DNA of 52,113 nucleotides from a virus. Lineage: Duplodnaviria; Heunggongvirae; Uroviricota; Caudoviricetes. Location: IMG/VR virus record IMGVR_UViG_2541047719_000006. The stretch is one strand, 5' to 3'. Numbering within the stretch: the first letter of the stretch is position 1; each line of letters begins with the position of its first letter. This document shows positions 1,553-9,247 of the stretch, piece by piece. The position numbers and the translations under genes were made by a program. The notes beneath the pieces were generated by a model, which searched no databases, was not told where the DNA came from, and was given only the letters and a program-made list of their open reading frames with translations.

Positions 1553-1741
1553 TCACGACGACTGAAGTTTCTCGCAATTAAAATTTATCAGTTTTACTTT
1601 CTGCTCTCTGGAAACGCCTGCTTCTTTTTTACCTGAGAGCATTTTTTCGCATTCTGATTTGGTTAATTTTGTTTTTGAGTACCTTGTCCAGTTAGTAGGA
1701 GTGCCACCTTCCTTTTCAATAGTGGCGGTAATTTTATACAT
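1553..1741 (-). CDS. ydaC: YdaC-like small prophage protein
   Basis: ORF 1553..1813; start at 1741 preferred because of GGAGGTG RBS 5 nt upstream; overlaps ralR stop by 8 nt; alternative starts 1753 and 1813. Confidence 0.5.
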   Translation of the reverse strand: MYKITATIEKEGGTPTNWTRYSKTKLTKSECEKMLSGKKEAGVSREQKVKLINFNCEKLQSS

Positions 1742-1928
1742 GAACACCTCCATTATTATTTCCAGTGGTTCGTTTATTCCATCGTTCGAGTGCTTCTTTT
1801 TCACTTCCACCATAGCCGGTTCGGGATTCGCATCCGTTACACTTCGCGCGGTAATATCCTGAAATGGCTTTCACCGTTACTGATGGACAACCACAAAAAG
1901 GGCATGGTTTGACTTTTTCATACCGCAT
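1734..1928 (-). CDS. ralR: Restriction alleviation protein Lar/RalR (type I toxin in Rac)
   Basis: 64 aa from internal Met; CPFCG ... C..C zinc-ribbon-like motif typical of the Lar family; Rac position between recombination module and ydaC. Confidence 0.8.
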   Translation of the reverse strand: MRYEKVKPCPFCGCPSVTVKAISGYYRAKCNGCESRTGYGGSEKEALERWNKRTTGNNNGGVHV

Positions 1929-1991
1929 TGTCTTTTCTCTCATAAAATAAAATTTTGTGATGGCGGTGAGGCTACACCGCCAAAGTAAATA

Positions 1992-3044
1992 TCAGGAGCC
2001 GATATATTCTGGTTTCATATCTGTCAGTGTCGTTTTATACGCCTCATATAATTCACCCAGATGTGGCCGGGCAGCATTCAGCGTATTTTCCAGAGCAGTA
2101 AATTTTTGTTCTGCTTCTGGATCACCTGAAGAAGGTAGGTCATTTATCATCTTCTCGATACGGGCAATAGCATTGAGACGGTGATGACGCTGAACCACTT
2201 TTCCTTTAAGTTCCGTATAGAGAGCGCCAAGTGTATTTTTATGATCTTCCACTTCCTGGCGAAGTGCTGTTGTTTCCCCGGTGCTTTGTGCCTGCTCAAT
2301 ACGTTCACGGAAAGCATCGATCCAGTTTTCCCCGGCATCCTGCTCAATAATTGTTGTTTCACGTTCCACGCGGCAAGCGGAAGTGTTTTTATGTTCCTGA
2401 ACCGGATTAATGATTTTTTCCTGTGGCTCGTCCAGTTCGTCCCTGGTGTACACTCCAAGAATCACTTCGGGGCAATAAAGGCGCGCCCAGCGTTTCAGCG
2501 CCAGATAGGCAAGCTGCTGGCGAGGATCGTCGGCCCATAGCGTTGAATTACGTGTTCTGGCCTGCGCCAGAAGTAATTCCAGTACGCGTGGTTTACTTTC
2601 GCCGCGTAGTGTTGCCTGGACACGAACACCGATCCCGTTTTCATCGGCCAGCTTCCAGCCAGGTACACGATATTCTTTCCCTTTGTCGCTCTTCCTGATT
2701 TCAAATTTCCCGATAATTTTTTCCCACGGCCCGAACCAGTCATATTCAATACGCCCGGTTAGCGGCCCACGAGTACTGATTACGGCATTAACCAGTTGCG
2801 CTTCATATCCGAGCACACCATTCACAACGAAAGTTTTCTGAGCTACTGCGTAAGGGTTCATTTGCCACTGCATCGCCTGCATGGTGATGGCCATGCAGTC
2901 TGATGGATTTCCCCGGAGGTGTTCCGGTACAGTAGCCATGCCGGAAGCCATTACCTGGGAAAATGTCTGAATTGCAGCCAGGGACTGAGGGCTGAAAACC
3001 GCAACATTAGAGTTAATATTTTCTTGTTGAGTTAATTCGTTCAT
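1992..3044 (-). CDS. Single-strand annealing protein, Redbeta/RecT superfamily
   Basis: 350-aa ORF directly downstream of the exonuclease gene; segment QMNPYAVAQKTFVVNGVLGYEAQLVNAVI resembles lambda Bet GLNPW...VVGVDGW core; GAGGAAGG RBS; not the K-12 RecT sequence. Confidence 0.6.
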   Translation of the reverse strand: MNELTQQENINSNVAVFSPQSLAAIQTFSQVMASGMATVPEHLRGNPSDCMAITMQAMQWQMNPYAVAQKTFVVNGVLGYEAQLVNAVISTRGPLTGRIEYDWFGPWEKIIGKFEIRKSDKGKEYRVPGWKLADENGIGVRVQATLRGESKPRVLELLLAQARTRNSTLWADDPRQQLAYLALKRWARLYCPEVILGVYTRDELDEPQEKIINPVQEHKNTSACRVERETTIIEQDAGENWIDAFRERIEQAQSTGETTALRQEVEDHKNTLGALYTELKGKVVQRHHRLNAIARIEKMINDLPSSGDPEAEQKFTALENTLNAARPHLGELYEAYKTTLTDMKPEYIGS

Positions 3045-3055
3045 TGTGTCCTTCC

Positions 3056-6000
3056 TCAGATGCTCAGTGCTTCAAGACGACGAAGATCAAAGTCGTTTAA
3101 TTCGTCGGTATAACTTTCGGTAATCGGTGCTGGCCAGTTGTTTGTCTCCAGGGCTTCGTTTATCTGGCGTAGCGTCCGGCGATATTCCTGTCGACCAAGT
3201 TCCAGGAGTTCCTGCGAGGCTTCCACGACTGCCACCCAGTGATAGCCAGCATCTTTGTTGACGAAGATCCAGAAAAATTTGTCCAGATTTGCCACATCGC
3301 AATACATTGCTGCGCTGAGGTGATAATCACGCTCAATAATTTCACGGTGCAGGCGATCTTTCAGTCGTTCCTGTCGCACATAACCGAGGCTGACTGACTT
3401 CACGTCGGCGCAAATGCTTTCGTATGGCAGCCGGATTTCGATATCAGGACGGACCCTGATTTCCAGCCCGGTTTCTTCATCAAACCCGAAATAGCTGATT
3501 TCAGATTTGCGATCCGGGTGGTTGAGTAGCCTTGCTGCATCAGTATTGTTTTGCAGTGCAGCGTGAATATTTTTTGCCTGTTCATACATATCTGAACTGA
3601 TAAACGTTTTCCCGGCGTTTTCTTCTTGCTGGCGTTTTTGCCAGTCCTCCAGGGTAACCAGTTCCGGGCGGATTTTCCGAGCGATTTCGGTTAATTGCTC
3701 TTTCGTGCCACTGATGTTGTAAGGCAAAGATTTAGCACGTTCTTTTTTCGCCAGTTCTGGATCTACAGTTTCAATTTGCTCCAGAAGTTGCTCCCGTGTT
3801 CCACTGGTTTTCAACAGAGGAGGGAGGTTTGCATTGTATTCTCTAATGCAGGCTTTCATTGCCGATGCAGTATGTTTCTCCTCCTCCGGAATACGCCGGA
3901 ATTCCACCGGAAGCGAACCGTAAAGGATGCCTGTTTCTTCGGCTCCAGCACTTACAGACAGTGGCTGTATAGGAGTGCTGTTGTAGCTTTCGATCCACTC
4001 TTTCATCTGCTCTGGTGTCATCAGTGCTGGCAGACTGGCATTGTGTTTTTTAATGATGGCGATCAGTTCGCTAGAAGTAGTAACCACATATTCAGGAACT
4101 GGTACCGGAATGGCATATTCATCAGCGAATTTATCCGTTTCCAGAACATAGCTGTGAATGATCCGCCCACGCAGCAGTGCATCACTTTCCTCGTTCGGAA
4201 TAGTTCCGGCAATGTGCCGTCCGTGGTAATACATCAGGCTGATACGGGCATCCTTCAGCATCGTGCTGCTTATTCCGTTGGCGGAGTGATAAACCTCGTT
4301 CGGGAGGTTTTCATAGCGGCCAGGCTCGAAATATGACGGCCACATGATTTCAGTTGCTACAGGAGCTGACGCTTCACCAGTTTCATCACTGCAATCACGA
4401 TGCGGATCGCTGCCAGCATTCTCATTGTGCGGATGTTCAGCGCCTTCCATTTCCACCGGATCTTTTTCCTTAGCTTCAACCTGATTCTCTTCATCGAATG
4501 TTTCCTGGTATGTTGCGTCGCCCGTCACCGCCCCACAGTCAGGGCAGTTATCTCCGCCAGTCTGACCGCAGGCATTGCAGACTATTTCCGGTTCCTGTTG
4601 CACTACTGGCTCAGGTTGTTTCACATCCGGGCTGGTTTTTTCCGTTTCTGGCTGGTTCTGGTACACAGAATCGCGAGTCTGGATCCCCTTAACCCATTTC
4701 GGATCGTTCGGGTCGCTAATTCCGTCAACAAATTCACCACGTGATGCAGCAAGCAATTTATCGGCATCGACAGGATTTTTTGATGGAATGTTTTTCCGGG
4801 CTTCATGGAGTTCTGCCCGCAGTTCCTGATATTTCGCATCAACAGAATTTACCTGTGACTGAGCATCCAGCGGCTGCGTGTCCTGATGATGTTTAGTTGC
4901 GTCCGGTTCCATTGTTTCAGCCTCTCCCTGTTCATCTGCCGTTGTTCCAGATGGTTGCGGTTTTTCTTCATCATCCTGTTTTCCTTCTTCTGTTACTCGC
5001 TGCGGCATCGGGGCAGAGGAGCGACCGCAGGCAATATCCACGATTTCCGGATCAGGGTTGGCATGATCGGTTTCAGTCAGTACTTTGTTCAGATATTCAG
5101 TGACGTGCGCGGGGGTGACCTCGATCCCAATTGGTGCTTCTTTTACGGACGCAACCACGATGGCGCGGGAATAATCCAGCCCGCCAGGCATGGTGATGAA
5201 TTTGTCGCGGAAAACAGAAAAGGGCGGTTTATTTTCAGCGATAATTTCCTCAATGCGTTTAGCGTGTGCCGGATGAAGGTTATAGATGTCCACGTCCATT
5301 GAACGGGCCAGTACGCCAGTGGCTACGTCGCGCGCCAGTGACGTAAGATCGTGGACGAAACCTTCGCCGCGATCGGTGAGGTTCCCGCCGCCAGCATTAG
5401 CACCGGAAGCCGTGCGAGTGATGCGTGAAACACGATTACCCTTCATCCACTCTTTTGTCAGCAGTCCTCGATCGGTGTAGTCAGCGTTCAGGTATGCTTC
5501 GAAAAAAGCAGTTAACAGTCCCAAGTCTGAATTACCAGGATTAGGGAAAACTTTGTCAGTGTCACGAACCAGTTTGTGGAGATCGCGAATTTCCAGCGGG
5601 TCGAGCAGGCTGGTTTTGTGGGAAACAGCCAGGGCAGTAACAGCCGGTAGTTCTTCAGCCCGTGCAATGTGTAATGCCTGGAGTTCGCCGCGTGAAACGT
5701 GCGTTACCGGTTTTTCGCTGCCGTGTTGAGCAAGCCAACGAATGGGCAGTTCCTGGCCAGAAATTGGGAGTAGCATATTCTCCTCAATCTCAGTCATGTC
5801 TTCGCCGTTGACGTTGGTATTGCCTTGATAGTGAGCGTTGTCTGGTGCTGCTCCCGGTTTTAGTTCCCATGTCATGGAGTCTTTGCTGAGTTGATAGCGT
5901 TCACTCCAGGTAAAATCGATCTCACCTTCAGCGGGCAGGTCATTAACGACAGGAAAATTCGTGGCAACAGCTTTAAAATAGCTGCTCAGTTTTTTACCTG

Positions 6001-6127
6001 ACTTAACGATCAGGTAGTCCAGAGTGGCACAGGTCGATTCAAAATCGTCACTTGCCCACAGGACGACGTCAGGTTCACCGGATGATTTTTTCGCTTTCCG
6101 TAACAGGAAGAGTGGTTTTGTGCTCAT
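3056..6127 (-). CDS. recE: Exodeoxyribonuclease VIII (RecE-like), mosaic with divergent C-terminal nuclease domain
   Basis: 1023 aa; N-terminal ~590 aa closely match remembered K-12 RecE ([26 protein letters not shown]...); C-terminal region differs and is longer but keeps RecE-like motifs ([24 protein letters not shown]). Confidence 0.8.
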
Positions 6128-6257
6128 TGTTTTTTAACCTCAACTCAGATTAAAATTCGTTTTGTTCAGTGAATGATCTTGCCGGATACACACTGTTCAT
6201 AGCCTGCGCCATACGCAGGCTATTTCTTTCAGATTTCACCTTTTAATTTCATTGCAA

Positions 6258-6503
6258 TCAGAGTTGCCAGAAATCCGGCTTTTTTTCTGCGGGCAGATTC
6301 TTTCCGATATGCACCAGGCTCATTTTTTTGACACCTTCGTGAAGTGTTTTAACGTTGCCTGATGGACCGTCGATATCAACTACAGTGAATGGGGTTTCTT
6401 TATTTTCTGTTTTAATCACGTAGCCAATACGCTTTCCTTCCAGATTAACTTCGTGAACAATGTCATCAGTAGTTACAACAGTGGCTTCATAACTGGTAAT
6501 CAT
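6258..6503 (-). CDS. racC: RacC-like prophage protein
   Basis: Internal ATG at 6503 with AAGGAG RBS gives MITSYEATVVTTDD...; Rac position upstream of recE. Confidence 0.6.
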   Translation of the reverse strand: MITSYEATVVTTDDIVHEVNLEGKRIGYVIKTENKETPFTVVDIDGPSGNVKTLHEGVKKMSLVHIGKNLPAEKKPDFWQL

Positions 6504-6577
6504 GTTTTTCTCCTTAATTAAGGTTGAGCGAATCCCTGCCATTGCTGGCATAAATTCAGTTTCGCATAGTCAGTTAA

Positions 6578-6748
6578 TTAAAGTTCGTGTGCCATCTGGT
6601 CTTTTTCGGCACATATTTCACTACAATATTTTTTCATTTCCGTCGTTGGGATAACTCCACGCATGAAATGAAGTGGTCTTTTAATGCTTTTGCTTTCTTT
6701 AACTTCTTTATCGCAAAGGTGGTAAGCACATTTTATTTTCTTAGTCAT
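6578..6748 (-). CDS. ydaE: YdaE-like small Cys-containing protein
   Basis: 56-aa ORF read by hand ([56 protein letters not shown]), absent from ORF track because <60 aa; start overlaps kilR stop (TGATG). Confidence 0.6.
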   Translation of the reverse strand: MTKKIKCAYHLCDKEVKESKSIKRPLHFMRGVIPTTEMKKYCSEICAEKDQMAHEL

Positions 6749-6969
6749 CACCATGACTCCGCCTTTACAGGTAAACCATCACGACCGAGGAAGACTTTAA
6801 TCATGCAGTCAGTAATGCATGTTTTTGTGGTCAGGTTACGAATATAAAGCTTTCGCTTTTTAATATTGTTTGCCGAGGCAATATATGTCCGGCCGTTATG
6901 AAGAACATAATCACCAGGAGTCACACACTGACGAGGTATTTCATCAGTTCCGAAGTGATGAGCAATCAT
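6748..6969 (-). CDS. kilR: KilR-like cell-division (FtsZ) inhibitor
   Basis: 73 aa from ATG 6969 (GGAG RBS); [24 protein letters not shown]...; position matches Rac kilR. Confidence 0.7.
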
Positions 6970-7460
6970 AATTATCTCCATTTTCACAAATGAACTTTGT
7001 TGATGCGGTGCCTGGTGCCTCCAGGTGACGTTAACCAGTTAACAATTAACGCCGGATAATCCACCCATAACACTGATGCTTTTAACTGTTCCGCGTGCGC
7101 TTAGCCGCATTCACCGCATCACAAAATTCACTTTAAAAAGGGCGGACATCAGCCGAACTTCAAGAAAAAACTGATGCCGCCAAGACTACACACAGCAATG
7201 TCGTTATTTACAACCGGAGGCGCACTCCCACCATTTAAATTTAACAGACAAGACCGACTCTTTATGGATATCGGAAATGCGCCTTCGTGTTGCGCCCAGT
7301 TTTATTTCACCACCTCCGGGCTTCGGTGGTCTCGGCTATACCCCTACAGCGAGAGCTTGTGTTAACATTTCAATACCCTTACAGTTGAGAGTTATTGATA
7401 TGTTGGATGTATTTACTCCATTGTTGAAACTTTTTGCTAACGAGCCACATCGAAAGACTT

Positions 7461-7889
7461 ATGTATACGATTATCATTTTTGGTCTCACTCTCTGGCTGA
7501 TACCGAAAGAGTTTACTGTCGCATTCAATGCTTATACTGAAATACCTTGGCTCTTTCAGATTATCGTTTTTGCCTTTTCTTTCGTGGTCGCCATTTCCTT
7601 CTCAAGATTGCGAGCACATATTCAAAAGCATTATTCATTACTACCAGAGCAACGAGTATTGCTTCGTTTATCTGAGAAAGAAATCGCTGTATTTAAAGAT
7701 TTCCTTAAAACAGGAAATCTTATTATCACTTCTCCTTGCCGTAACCCGGTTATGAAAAAATTAGAACGGAAGGGCATCATTCAACATCAGAGTGATAGCG
7801 CAAACTGTTCTTATTATCTCGTCACCGAAAAATACTCCCATTTTATGAAGTTATTCTGGAACAGCAGGAGTAGACGTTTTAATCGTTAG
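7461..7889 (+). CDS. sieB: Superinfection exclusion protein B (SieB), possibly N-terminally disrupted
   Basis: Membrane-protein ORF MYTIIIFGLTLWLIPKEF...; the expected N-terminus MLDVFTPLLKLFANEP is encoded from ATG 7400 in a different frame, implying a 1-nt indel. Confidence 0.6.
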   Translation: MYTIIIFGLTLWLIPKEFTVAFNAYTEIPWLFQIIVFAFSFVVAISFSRLRAHIQKHYSLLPEQRVLLRLSEKEIAVFKDFLKTGNLIITSPCRNPVMKKLERKGIIQHQSDSANCSYYLVTEKYSHFMKLFWNSRSRRFNR

Positions 7890-8041
7890 CTTACTGTGTG
7901 CTTCTCCAACCATCGGCGCGCACCAGTTTCGGTTTTAAATGTTTTGCTTTTGGTATAAGTCATGGCGGTGAACGTTCCATCCTGGTTGGGGAACACGCCG
8001 CACACCATGGATTCGTTATTGCCGAGGTCGATTTTTTGCAT
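7886..8041 (-). CDS. ydaF: YdaF-like small prophage protein
   Basis: 51-aa ORF read by hand (MQKIDLGNNESMVCGVFPNQDGTFTAMTYTKSKTFKTETGARRWLEKHTVS); Rac position between sieB and ydaG; convergent 4-nt overlap with sieB. Confidence 0.5.
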   Translation of the reverse strand: MQKIDLGNNESMVCGVFPNQDGTFTAMTYTKSKTFKTETGARRWLEKHTVS

Positions 8042-8051
8042 TTTTCGCACC

Positions 8052-8186
8052 TCACATCTTGTTGTTGCGGATAGAGGCTTCTGCTTGCCAGAGATCCCAG
8101 TCGTTGCTACGTAAAGCCTGCACAGCCTGGCTGTAAGTGATACCGCAACAATCCATCAAATACTGAACTACTTCGTAATGCACCAT
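8052..8186 (-). CDS. ydaG: YdaG-like small prophage protein
   Basis: 44 aa from internal ATG 8186 (AAGGGGA RBS): MVHYEVVQYLMDCCGITYSQAVQALRSNDWDLWQAEASIRNNKM. Confidence 0.5.
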   Translation of the reverse strand: MVHYEVVQYLMDCCGITYSQAVQALRSNDWDLWQAEASIRNNKM

Positions 8187-8387
8187 CTTTTTTCCCCTTA
8201 ACGCCGGGTGGCGGAACGTTTTATCTACTGCGCTTTGTATCAATCAACAACTGCCGTCATGTTCGTATGCCTCAGGCTGGCTACTTAGCCCTGTTCAGTG
8301 GCTGGATAACTCGAGGTATTGTCCTGCCGTTCTCCGGTGGGGCGTTGTTTGGATATGCTTATTAAACACAAAGGGTTTTTGCATGTC

Positions 8388-8402
8388 AACACAAAATGTG
8401 TT
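8388..8402. promoter_or_regulatory. Inverted repeat AACACA-aaa-TGTGTT (candidate left operator)
   Basis: 6-bp arms, 3-bp spacer; near-identical repeat at 8965..8979 on the other side of racR; extra half-site AAACACAAA at 8364..8372. Confidence 0.45.
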
Positions 8403-8439
8403 TTTATGGTGGCGTGTCATATGATGATGGTACAAAAAA

Positions 8440-8462
8440 AGCCCGCTGATAGCGGGCTGATT
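8440..8462 (-). terminator. Rho-independent terminator downstream of racR
   Basis: On minus strand GCCCGC-tatca-GCGGGC followed by TTTTTTT. Confidence 0.55.
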
Positions 8463-8488
8463 GGCATATTACTGTGATAGCAAGATCA

Positions 8489-8908
8489 TTACTCCGGTGG
8501 GGGGGTATCTTTAAGCCTGCCCCTCAAATATTTTTCTACATACTCGTCGATTTCTTTTAGCCGGACTTCAAATAGCTCAATCATTCGTTGTTGTTCTGAG
8601 CCCGGTAGCTGGTTAAACAACTCAAGAAGTTTTCGTTGGGATTCATTTAACCACAATTCAGAAGAGTCTTTTTCCCCAAAGAGGAGCTCAGGAGGAGATA
8701 TGCCCAGCGCCTTTCCCAGGACGACAGCATCATGCACTCCAACATTTCTGCTGCCCGCCTCATAGTTACCTATACGCGATTGCGTCCATCCGCAGATTTC
8801 AGCAAGTTTTCCTTGAGATAAACCAAGCTTCTGCCTGCGCTCTTTAAGACGCATTGCAATTTTGTCATTGAGCCTACTAGCGGCAATTTTTTCGTTTTCT
8901 TTTTCCAT
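8489..8908 (-). CDS. racR: Prophage repressor, HTH XRE family (RacR-like)
   Basis: 139 aa with HTH segment LGLSQGKLAEICGWTQSRIGNYE; divergent from ydaS as in Rac. Confidence 0.75.
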   Translation of the reverse strand: MEKENEKIAASRLNDKIAMRLKERRQKLGLSQGKLAEICGWTQSRIGNYEAGSRNVGVHDAVVLGKALGISPPELLFGEKDSSELWLNESQRKLLELFNQLPGSEQQRMIELFEVRLKEIDEYVEKYLRGRLKDTPPPE

Positions 8909-9004
8909 TTCGTCCTTGTATCACGAATCGTGATTTATATAAAACACAAAATAGCTTGACCGTAAAACACAAGGTGTGTTTAAAATTGTCGTCGGAGGTT
9001 TTTA
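8909..9004. promoter_or_regulatory. Divergent racR/ydaS promoter-operator region
   Basis: Palindrome ATCACGA-A-TCGTGAT at 8920..8934; inverted repeat AACACA-agg-TGTGTT at 8965..8979; TTGACC (8955..8960) with TAAAAT/TTTAAA -10 candidates; GGAGG RBS before ydaS. Confidence 0.5.
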
Positions 9005-9247
9005 ATGAACAAAATTTCAACATATCGAAAACAACTTGGTCTGTCTCAAAGACAACTCGCTGTTCAGCTAGGGTGGATACAAAGCCGACTGGCAAATTAC
9101 GAAGCAAATTTTCGTACCCCTGGGCTAGAGGAGTGCAGAAAAATTGTTTCCACCCTTAATCGGCTTGGTGCTCATTGTGGACTTGACGATGTATTCCCCC
9201 CAGACGGTAAGCATAGCGAAAACAGCATAGGAGCGGTTGATTCATGA
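9005..9247 (+). CDS. ydaS: Cro-like HTH regulator YdaS
   Basis: 80 aa; HTH LGLSQRQLAVQLGWIQSRLANYE; GGAGG RBS; first gene of rightward early operon. Confidence 0.75.
   Translation: MNKISTYRKQLGLSQRQLAVQLGWIQSRLANYEANFRTPGLEECRKIVSTLNRLGAHCGLDDVFPPDGKHSENSIGAVDS

Follow-up and report, generated by a model that had tools for sequence, protein, structure and literature searches.

The question raised by this locus is whether the recE gene of a Rac-type prophage and the annealase gene beside it have descended as one unit with their counterparts in Rac, a prophage carried by Escherichia coli K-12, or whether parts of them have been exchanged, and if so which parts move together. The DNA concerned is the IMG/VR virus record IMGVR_UViG_2541047719_000006 (Caudoviricetes), a stretch of 52,113 nucleotides, which in its whole length is referred to as the window. 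Its sequence occurs with 100% identity in the chromosome of E. coli K56-43-un, where a Rac-type prophage lies beside ttcA. The two genes occupy positions 1992-6127 on the minus strand. They very probably make up an intact recombinase with two components, of the RecET type, in which one cassette has been exchanged, relative to K-12 Rac, between related lambdoid prophages. The locus is a case of ordinary lambdoid mosaicism within the known RecET family, already annotated by RefSeq, with a cassette of the Gifsy type. Its value lies not in the locus itself, but in the comparative pattern that it exposes, namely that parts of both proteins move together. RecET and Red are the chief tools of recombineering, and this locus and its relatives can be regarded as natural swap experiments on the role of the RecE N-terminal region of about 600 residues and on the coupling of RecT to RecE.

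Boundaries of the exchanged cassette

The recE gene (3056-6127, minus strand; named recE by RefSeq) is an open reading frame encoding 1023 amino acids. The full-length protein scores 1519 bits against NF007259, the NCBIfam equivalog model for exodeoxyribonuclease VIII (cut-off 1269; K-12 RecE scores 1830), and most of this score is contributed by the N-terminal region. Pfam Exonuc_VIII (PF06630) is matched at residues 2-178 (E = 4.5e-96). The N-terminal region, residues 1-585 (4373-6127, minus strand), is of the K-12 Rac type in both protein and DNA: residues 1-586 align with K-12 RecE without gaps at 565 of 586 identical positions (96.4%), and the DNA of the region is 97.9% identical. The statement of the first-pass annotation that the first ~590 residues track K-12 RecE is therefore correct. 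A CxxC-x9-CxxC pattern at residues 517-532 (4532-4579, minus strand) resembles a zinc ribbon; it is kept in K-12 RecE as well as in the DEDD-fusion proteins described in the last section.

Alignment by blastn shows the window to be collinear with K-12 Rac at 97.6% over positions 1-1982 and at 95.3% over positions 4358-8344. The 2,375 bp in between (1983-4357) have no DNA match, and the K-12 counterpart measures 1,640 bp. Since the flanks are collinear and the interior is unmatched, a single 2.4-kb cassette has been swapped in. It contains exactly the nuclease-coding part of recE and the annealase gene, which agrees with the earlier suggestion of a recombinational exchange of the functional half of the module, as does the presence of the cassette in another prophage (see below).

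Comparison with K-12 Rac locates the two breakpoints as steps at 4358-4387 and 1961-1982. The upstream joint (4358-4387, minus strand; four-way DNA alignment, BLAST block edge at 4358) falls in recE codons ~581-590 (DETGE|A). In bins of 50 nt, identity at the DNA level stays at 94-100% as far down as window position 4401, and from 4350 on it is about 50%, i.e., background. The final string shared with K-12, GATGAAACTGGTGAAG, lies at 4372-4387; RecE begins to diverge from K-12 after ...SDETGE, and the switch spans about 15 nt. The downstream joint is a conserved GC-rich hairpin at 1961-1982 (minus strand; three-way alignment, exact match, BLAST block edge at 1982). Here homology to K-12 resumes at TGGCGGTG...CACCGCCA, 9 nt beyond the annealase stop codon. 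A terminator scan did not identify the hairpin as a canonical intrinsic terminator, and a scan for sigma-70-type promoters found none within window positions 1700-2100. Laboratories work with a minimal functional RecET module made up of RecE from a.a. 588 and full recT (PMC3945230). The exchanged cassette matches this laboratory unit, and its breakpoint coincides with the laboratory truncation at ~588.

The same cassette is found, at 96.6% identity, in strain CAU16175, with another integrase, another attachment site and another RecE N-terminus; RecE of CAU16175 has a second mosaic joint near residue 212. Taken over other prophage backgrounds, the identity of the cassette is 92-100%. Most of the window-type cassette is present in 159 of 5,426 complete E. 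coli genomes, and the K-12-type cassette in 1,728 of the same set. Viral contigs were searched with the C-terminal domain (CTD) of the annealase alone, and the best 80 of 579 matches were considered. These contigs include nuclease domains 97-98% identical to that of the window on N-terminal regions whose identity to that of K-12 ranges over 54-98%, and because near-identical nucleases occur on such varied N-terminal regions, the joint near residue 586 must have been used repeatedly. Most likely, the exchange took place via the conserved flanks, i.e., the stretch coding for the DETGE linker upstream and the GC-rich hairpin downstream. The cassette extends from recE codon ~586 to a point 9 nt beyond the stop codon of the annealase gene, and the K-12-type N-terminal 585 residues are retained.

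The nuclease region of RecE

The exchanged nuclease region comprises residues 586-1023 (3056-4372, minus strand) and was classified by Foldseek, phmmer, Pfam and homology to Gifsy. Past the break, the window RecE has 437 amino acids and K-12 RecE has 280, a difference of 157, and K-12 RecE aligns after the break only across the PD-(D/E)XK core, at ~29% identity. The C-terminal region had been described earlier as divergent and ~150 amino acids longer, and so it is. DUF3799 (PF12684) is matched at residues 836-1000 (E = 1.3e-13), the alignment being limited to profile positions 61-222 because an insertion interrupts the domain. By phmmer, the region matches E. coli RecE (PDB 3H4R) with E = 2.9e-7. 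The top Foldseek match of its AlphaFold model, which has a mean predicted local distance difference test score (pLDDT) of 71, is again 3H4R (E = 3.3e-9), with lambda Exo reaching only ~0.03. The nuclease region is a RecE-type PD-(D/E)XK domain, and not of the lambda-Exo/YqaJ type.

The catalytic motif RVRPD895...AD908-V-K910 (3398-3445, minus strand) was located by alignment to RCRPD748...MD759-V-K761 of K-12. Residues D895, D908 and K910 are aligned with K-12 D748, D759 and K761 and are invariant across 13 homologues. These D/D/K residues reportedly form the RecE active site (Zhang et al. 2009). The window RecE is predicted from its sequence to act as a 5'-3' exonuclease on double-stranded DNA; a processive activity of this kind and a toroidal tetramer are characteristic of exodeoxyribonuclease VIII.

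The additional length resides in a helical insertion of ~155 amino acids with an internal duplication (residues ~680-835; 3623-4090, minus strand), as seen from the alignment, the model and hhalign. The pairwise alignment with K-12 RecE shows that it is missing there. It is modelled as helical with a pLDDT of 80-93 and contains two repeats of 20 residues (hhalign probability 95.5%). The isolated insertion gave only sub-threshold matches to Pfam (Stk19, Ish1, SAP_new25), and with the Ish1 and SAP_new25 matches below threshold an assignment to HeH/SAP is not claimed. Five genome loci (L082-L086) carry a nuclease of the same clade with a shorter insertion; in L082 about 33 residues are absent (fragment positions 121-153). 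As these five are still paired with a window-type annealase, the length of the insertion is variable.

The RecE proteins of Gifsy-1 and Gifsy-2 also have the insertion-bearing nuclease, at 51-52% identity across the full 434 amino acids, and the Gifsy annealase is 53% identical to that of the window in its core and 49% in its CTD. The N-terminus of Gifsy-2 RecE is 41% identical to that of K-12, as against 96% for the window, so that in the window RecE module a Rac N-terminus carries a Gifsy-like cassette. The nearest cassettes, at 75-85%, come from one Salmonella enterica genome and one soil metagenome-assembled genome.

The direction of the exchange may have been the reverse: the insertion-bearing nuclease with this annealase would be the older arrangement on the long RecE, and K-12 Rac would be the recombinant, having received a phage-type short nuclease and RecT. 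This reading is an appreciable possibility, somewhat less likely than not. In its favor, the insertion-bearing nuclease usually occurs within Enterobacterales on long N-terminal regions homologous to that of RecE, among them that of Gifsy-2, and the K-12-type nuclease is found also as a stand-alone protein of 273 amino acids in phages TL-2011b and SPN1S. Within E. coli, however, the genome counts given above make the K-12-type cassette about ten times commoner, and the repeated use of the joint means that neither arrangement is clearly ancestral.

An exchanged cassette could also be an inert remnant of a decaying prophage, the pair being no longer a working recombinase. Two observations speak for this and against an intact module: K-12 recET is transcriptionally silent in the absence of sbcA mutations (PMC3945230), and the racC-like gene, sieB and the tail-tube gene of the present prophage are marked as frameshifted by RefSeq, so that the prophage, despite its full length, may be partly decayed. 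Deletion derivatives also exist. In one viral contig (L149, 4834-6264), the N-terminal residues 1-383 of RecE continue in frame into the final ~85 residues of the annealase CTD, with loss of both the nuclease domain and the annealase core. Against decay of the pair itself, both open reading frames are of full length with the catalytic residues intact, and the pair is preserved intact in the majority of the 159 genomes as well as in viral contigs of 47-50 kb; moreover, a record submitted as that of an isolated phage has an annealase of 99.7% identity with an adjacent exoVIII gene. It is unlikely that the pair is inert, and the preferred reading remains that of an intact RecET-type module with an exchanged cassette.

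The annealase and its co-inheritance with the nuclease

The annealase gene (1992-3044, minus strand) encodes 350 amino acids. It is separated from recE by a spacer of 11 nt (3045-3055, minus strand) with the ribosome-binding site GGAAGGA; since GGAAGGA comes after the stop codon of recE and the annealase ATG 7 nt further on, the two genes form a normal operon. In K-12, by contrast, recE and recT overlap. The annealase matches Pfam PF03837 ('RecT') at residues 30-209 with 147.5 bits (gathering cut-off 24; E = 4.6e-43), a model which does not discriminate within the superfamily, because K-12 RecT (188.9 bits) and lambda Bet (115.6 bits) score as well. It matches PHROG 561 with E = 5e-145 and is 48.6% identical to Gifsy-2 RecT, HK225 and mEp237 across 97% of its length. 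Homologues with 57-70% identity bear the source name 'enterohemolysin', other members of the cluster are named 'RecT family recombinase', and phage copies are annotated as 'RecT family enterohemolysin'. Where PMC8093625 treats them, after Iyer et al., the enterohemolysin-associated (EHAP1-like) proteins are a distinct E. coli/Salmonella subgroup of the superfamily. By its sequence relationships (Pfam, PHROG and close relatives), the annealase is assigned to a third branch of the RecT/Redbeta superfamily, that of the Gifsy/'enterohemolysin' proteins, which is probably the EHAP1-like one.

Two domains are predicted. The N-terminal DNA-binding core (residues ~1-210; 2415-3044, minus strand) is delimited by the Pfam match and by the model, in which it is alpha/beta with a pLDDT of 50-88. 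A linker at residues 193-237 is modelled as disordered. The C-terminal domain (residues ~238-350; 1995-2333, minus strand) is recognized from the model, all-helical at residues 238-347 with a pLDDT of ~90, and from the co-inheritance described below. Searched alone against Pfam, the CTD gave only sub-threshold matches (HrpB7, spectrin). Compared with K-12 RecT, the window annealase is 81 amino acids longer, has this folded helical C-terminal domain and shows no pairwise similarity: BLASTP gives E = 0.36, the RecT-specific NCBIfam models TIGR00616 and NF007351 are unmatched at E <= 0.01 (K-12 RecT scores 416-465 bits), and hhalign gives a probability of 0.2-0.3%. The partner of the nuclease had been judged earlier not to be K-12 RecT, and these results are in accordance with that.

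The same annotation had ascribed to the annealase a Bet/Redbeta-like core, which would make the module a RecE-Bet hybrid with RecT replaced by a lambda Bet/Redbeta-type annealase. The weakest pairwise signals do favor Bet slightly over RecT, with a BLASTP E-value of 0.02, over 34 residues only, and an hhalign probability of up to 27.7%, confined to a single helix, the last of the core (W..P..L..A...G(V/I)Y..DE). The Bet-specific equivalog model TIGR01913, however, is unmatched at E <= 0.01. With a more diverse profile the hhalign probability for Bet falls to 2.8%, which is comparable to the 5.9% obtained in the RecT-versus-Bet control; the hhalign probabilities against K-12 RecT, a small RecT profile and lambda Bet all stay below 30%, and profiles of this depth are insufficient to order the three branches. 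All close relatives of the annealase are of the Gifsy, HK225 or 'enterohemolysin' type, and its partner nuclease is of the RecE and not of the lambda Exo/YqaJ type. The ascription to Bet is not supported, and a RecE-Bet hybrid is quite improbable. No relatives of the annealase were found in PDB by sequence, and fold searches were uninformative (Foldseek of the annealase model versus 7UJL, E = 1.0). Aligned with K-12 RecE/RecT and lambda Exo/Bet, the module is not uniformly similar to either pair and shows, against K-12, an abrupt step. The remaining alternative, that the C-terminal half of recE and recT diverged rapidly in place without an exchange, is compatible with the homology of the nuclease cores (~29%) and with the membership of both annealases in one Pfam family, but is rejected as extremely improbable on account of the step-like junctions at both ends, where DNA identity drops from 94-100% to background inside one 50-nt bin and recovers equally abruptly, the difference of 735 bp in length between the two cassettes, and the 92-100% identity of the cassette in other prophage backgrounds.

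Which parts of the exchanged cassette belong together was assessed in a set of 80 Enterobacterales loci with the insertion-bearing nuclease, one per species; three of these end at contig ends, leaving 77 evaluable. The downstream gene is a window-type annealase at 72 loci, an annealase with a K-12-RecT-type core at four, and decayed at one. The window-type CTD is thus present in the downstream annealase at 76 of 77 loci, and the adjacent, co-oriented arrangement in one operon that marks two-component exonuclease/annealase recombinases (SynExo/EATR) is conserved. Among the 60 loci with complete proteins, the Mantel r between pairwise identities in the nuclease core and in the annealase CTD is 0.81; between the nuclease core and the annealase N-terminal core it is only 0.28, although the latter sits between the other two on the DNA. 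The adjusted Rand index at 60% identity is 0.68 for nuclease and CTD and 0.03 for nuclease and annealase core. The general expectation that exonuclease and annealase co-evolve as a pair consequently holds for one part of the annealase: the CTD tracks the nuclease domain, whereas the core re-assorts freely.

The four exceptions to the window-type core are chimeras (L019, 4873-6036; L043, 7251-8414; L048, 7254-8417; L078, 7241-8404), found in three Serratia genomes and one labelled Sphingomonas. They combine a RecT-type core (~30% identity to K-12 RecT, E ~1e-26) with a window-type CTD (34-41% identity to the window CTD, E 1e-12 to 5e-14) that has the motif LYTELKNKIVxQHHRLNAIA, and they sit downstream of the insertion-bearing nuclease. 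The converse is seen in phages TL-2011b and SPN1S: their annealase has a window-type core (51-53% identity), but its C-terminal region is unrelated to that of the window, and their stand-alone nuclease is of the K-12 type, 49% identical to the C-terminal part of K-12 RecE, and lacks both the insertion and the N-terminal region. In the viral set, the insertion-bearing nuclease lies directly upstream of the CTD in 78 of the best 80 of 579 contigs, and a nuclease of the K-12, lambda-Exo or DEDD type in none of these 80. The remaining two are a deletion derivative and one contig left unassigned. Mosaic joints occur within the annealase core as well: in 15 contigs (L128-L142) the nuclease is 97-98% and the CTD 80-83% identical to the window, and the annealase core only 56-58%, with the divergent block at annealase residues ~89-175 (window 2519-2778).

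The co-inheritance of the CTD with the type of nuclease suggests that the CTD docks on its cognate nuclease domain and that the core is a generic annealing engine. A precedent is provided by lambda, where heterologous Exo/annealase pairs are non-functional and the CTD of Redbeta is the part that binds lambda Exo (PMC6393309). Like the pair of the window, lambda Exo and Redbeta (complex PDB 6M9K) consist of a PD-(D/E)XK exonuclease and a PF03837 annealase with a core and a separate helical CTD, and the window CTD may behave in the same way as that of Redbeta. In other respects the two systems differ. The window proteins show no significant similarity to Exo (E = 0.76) or Bet (see above), lambda Exo belongs to Pfam YqaJ and the window nuclease to DUF3799, the two CTDs have no detectable similarity, and the gene order in lambda is reversed, with bet upstream of exo. 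In the mechanism proposed for the window pair, the nuclease would resect the 5' strand at a double-strand end, and the annealase would be loaded on the emerging 3' tail by docking of its CTD, as with the Redbeta CTD on lambda Exo. Nuclease domain and CTD would form a co-adapted unit, and for this reason would be exchanged together.

Several points weigh against the docking role. The evidence for it is comparative, and shared vertical descent with gene conversion of only the conserved core could mimic the correlation with no physical interaction. The four chimeras are close relatives of one another and so represent one evolutionary event, and the viral set is skewed to close relatives. The model of the annealase core is of mediocre quality, and the fold searches of the annealase yielded nothing informative. 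Finally, K-12-type nucleases with a mutual identity of 49% have partners whose C-terminal regions show no detectable similarity among themselves, and the pairing rule is therefore demonstrated only for the insertion-bearing nuclease. If docking by the CTD is correct, any annealase core could be adapted to a given exonuclease by supplying it with the cognate CTD, a design that is open to test.

Further RecE fusions and the prophage background

A third cassette occurs on the RecE N-terminal region. In other lambdoid prophages, genes of 813 codons annotated as 'exonuclease' or '3'-5' exoribonuclease domain' (type WP_000102136.1) couple the N-terminal region of RecE (residues 50-587 at 59% identity, up to ...NETGE) to a catalytic part of the DEDD type, namely an Rv2179c-like/RNase T 3'-5' exonuclease (PF16473, E = 1.2e-67). 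Examples are L006 (3385-5826, E. coli CREC8) and L005 (3355-5798, E. coli O157:H7 EC4115, frameshifted). There, an excisionase gene directly follows the DEDD-type gene, and an annealase gene is absent. Of the 5,426 complete E. coli genomes, 4,053 (75%) have the DEDD domain, with as many as seven copies each. The divergence of the DEDD-type genes sets in no more than about 20 nt from the same upstream joint (homologous to window ~4360-4390), and with DEDD and PD-(D/E)XK fusions at one joint, the N-terminal region behaves as a common platform. A limited literature search found no paper on the window mosaic or on the fusion of the RecE N-terminus to a DEDD domain.

Chances are about even that RecET modules are composed of four exchangeable pieces, in which the nuclease and the annealase CTD form a docking pair, cores of the RecT and EHAP1 types are interchangeable, and the N-terminal region is a portable platform with a hot spot of exchange at DETGE. 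If this is true, the function of the RecE N-terminal region would be independent of nuclease polarity and of annealing. As it has been reused with a nuclease of opposite polarity, the region could be tested as an autonomous module.

The prophage is of full length and includes genes for head, tail and lysis; the recombination module belongs to its early-left operon. The RefSeq gene order around the module is intR, xisR, a DUF1187 gene, ralR, 'RecT family recombinase', recE, a racC-like gene, ydaE and kilR. It shares with K-12 Rac the prophage type, the site at ttcA and the order intR-xisR-...-ralR-annealase-recE-racC-kilR. The ralR open reading frame lies at 1734-1943 (minus strand). The small RNA RalA, the RalR antitoxin (Rfam RF02694, 215 bits), is found at 1557-1735 (plus strand), antisense to the DUF1187 gene and ralR, as in K-12 Rac. 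The features marked as frameshifted by RefSeq are the racC-like gene (6258-6551, minus strand), sieB (~7434-7889, plus strand) and, further along, the tail-tube gene.

The immunity region (8345-9237) differs from that of K-12 Rac, racR/ydaS being replaced by another helix-turn-helix repressor gene (8489-8908, minus strand) and a Cro-like gene. This patch is a second, independent mosaic, common to strain CAU16175 at 96.5% identity. At the distal end of the prophage, a cdtA-cdtB-cdtC operon (cytolethal distending toxin type IV; RefSeq annotation) is located at 47324-49424 (plus strand).

The isolated-phage record with the 99.7% identical annealase is PP818812.1 ('Actinobacillus phage vB_Apl-pPE4', 47.5 kb; L091, 2867-7053), submitted as a phage of Actinobacillus pleuropneumoniae, in which the exoVIII gene encodes 1040 amino acids. 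Either the host is mis-assigned, or the record is contaminated, or the host range crosses families; the same record also carries kil and ydaT genes typical of Rac-like prophages of E. coli.

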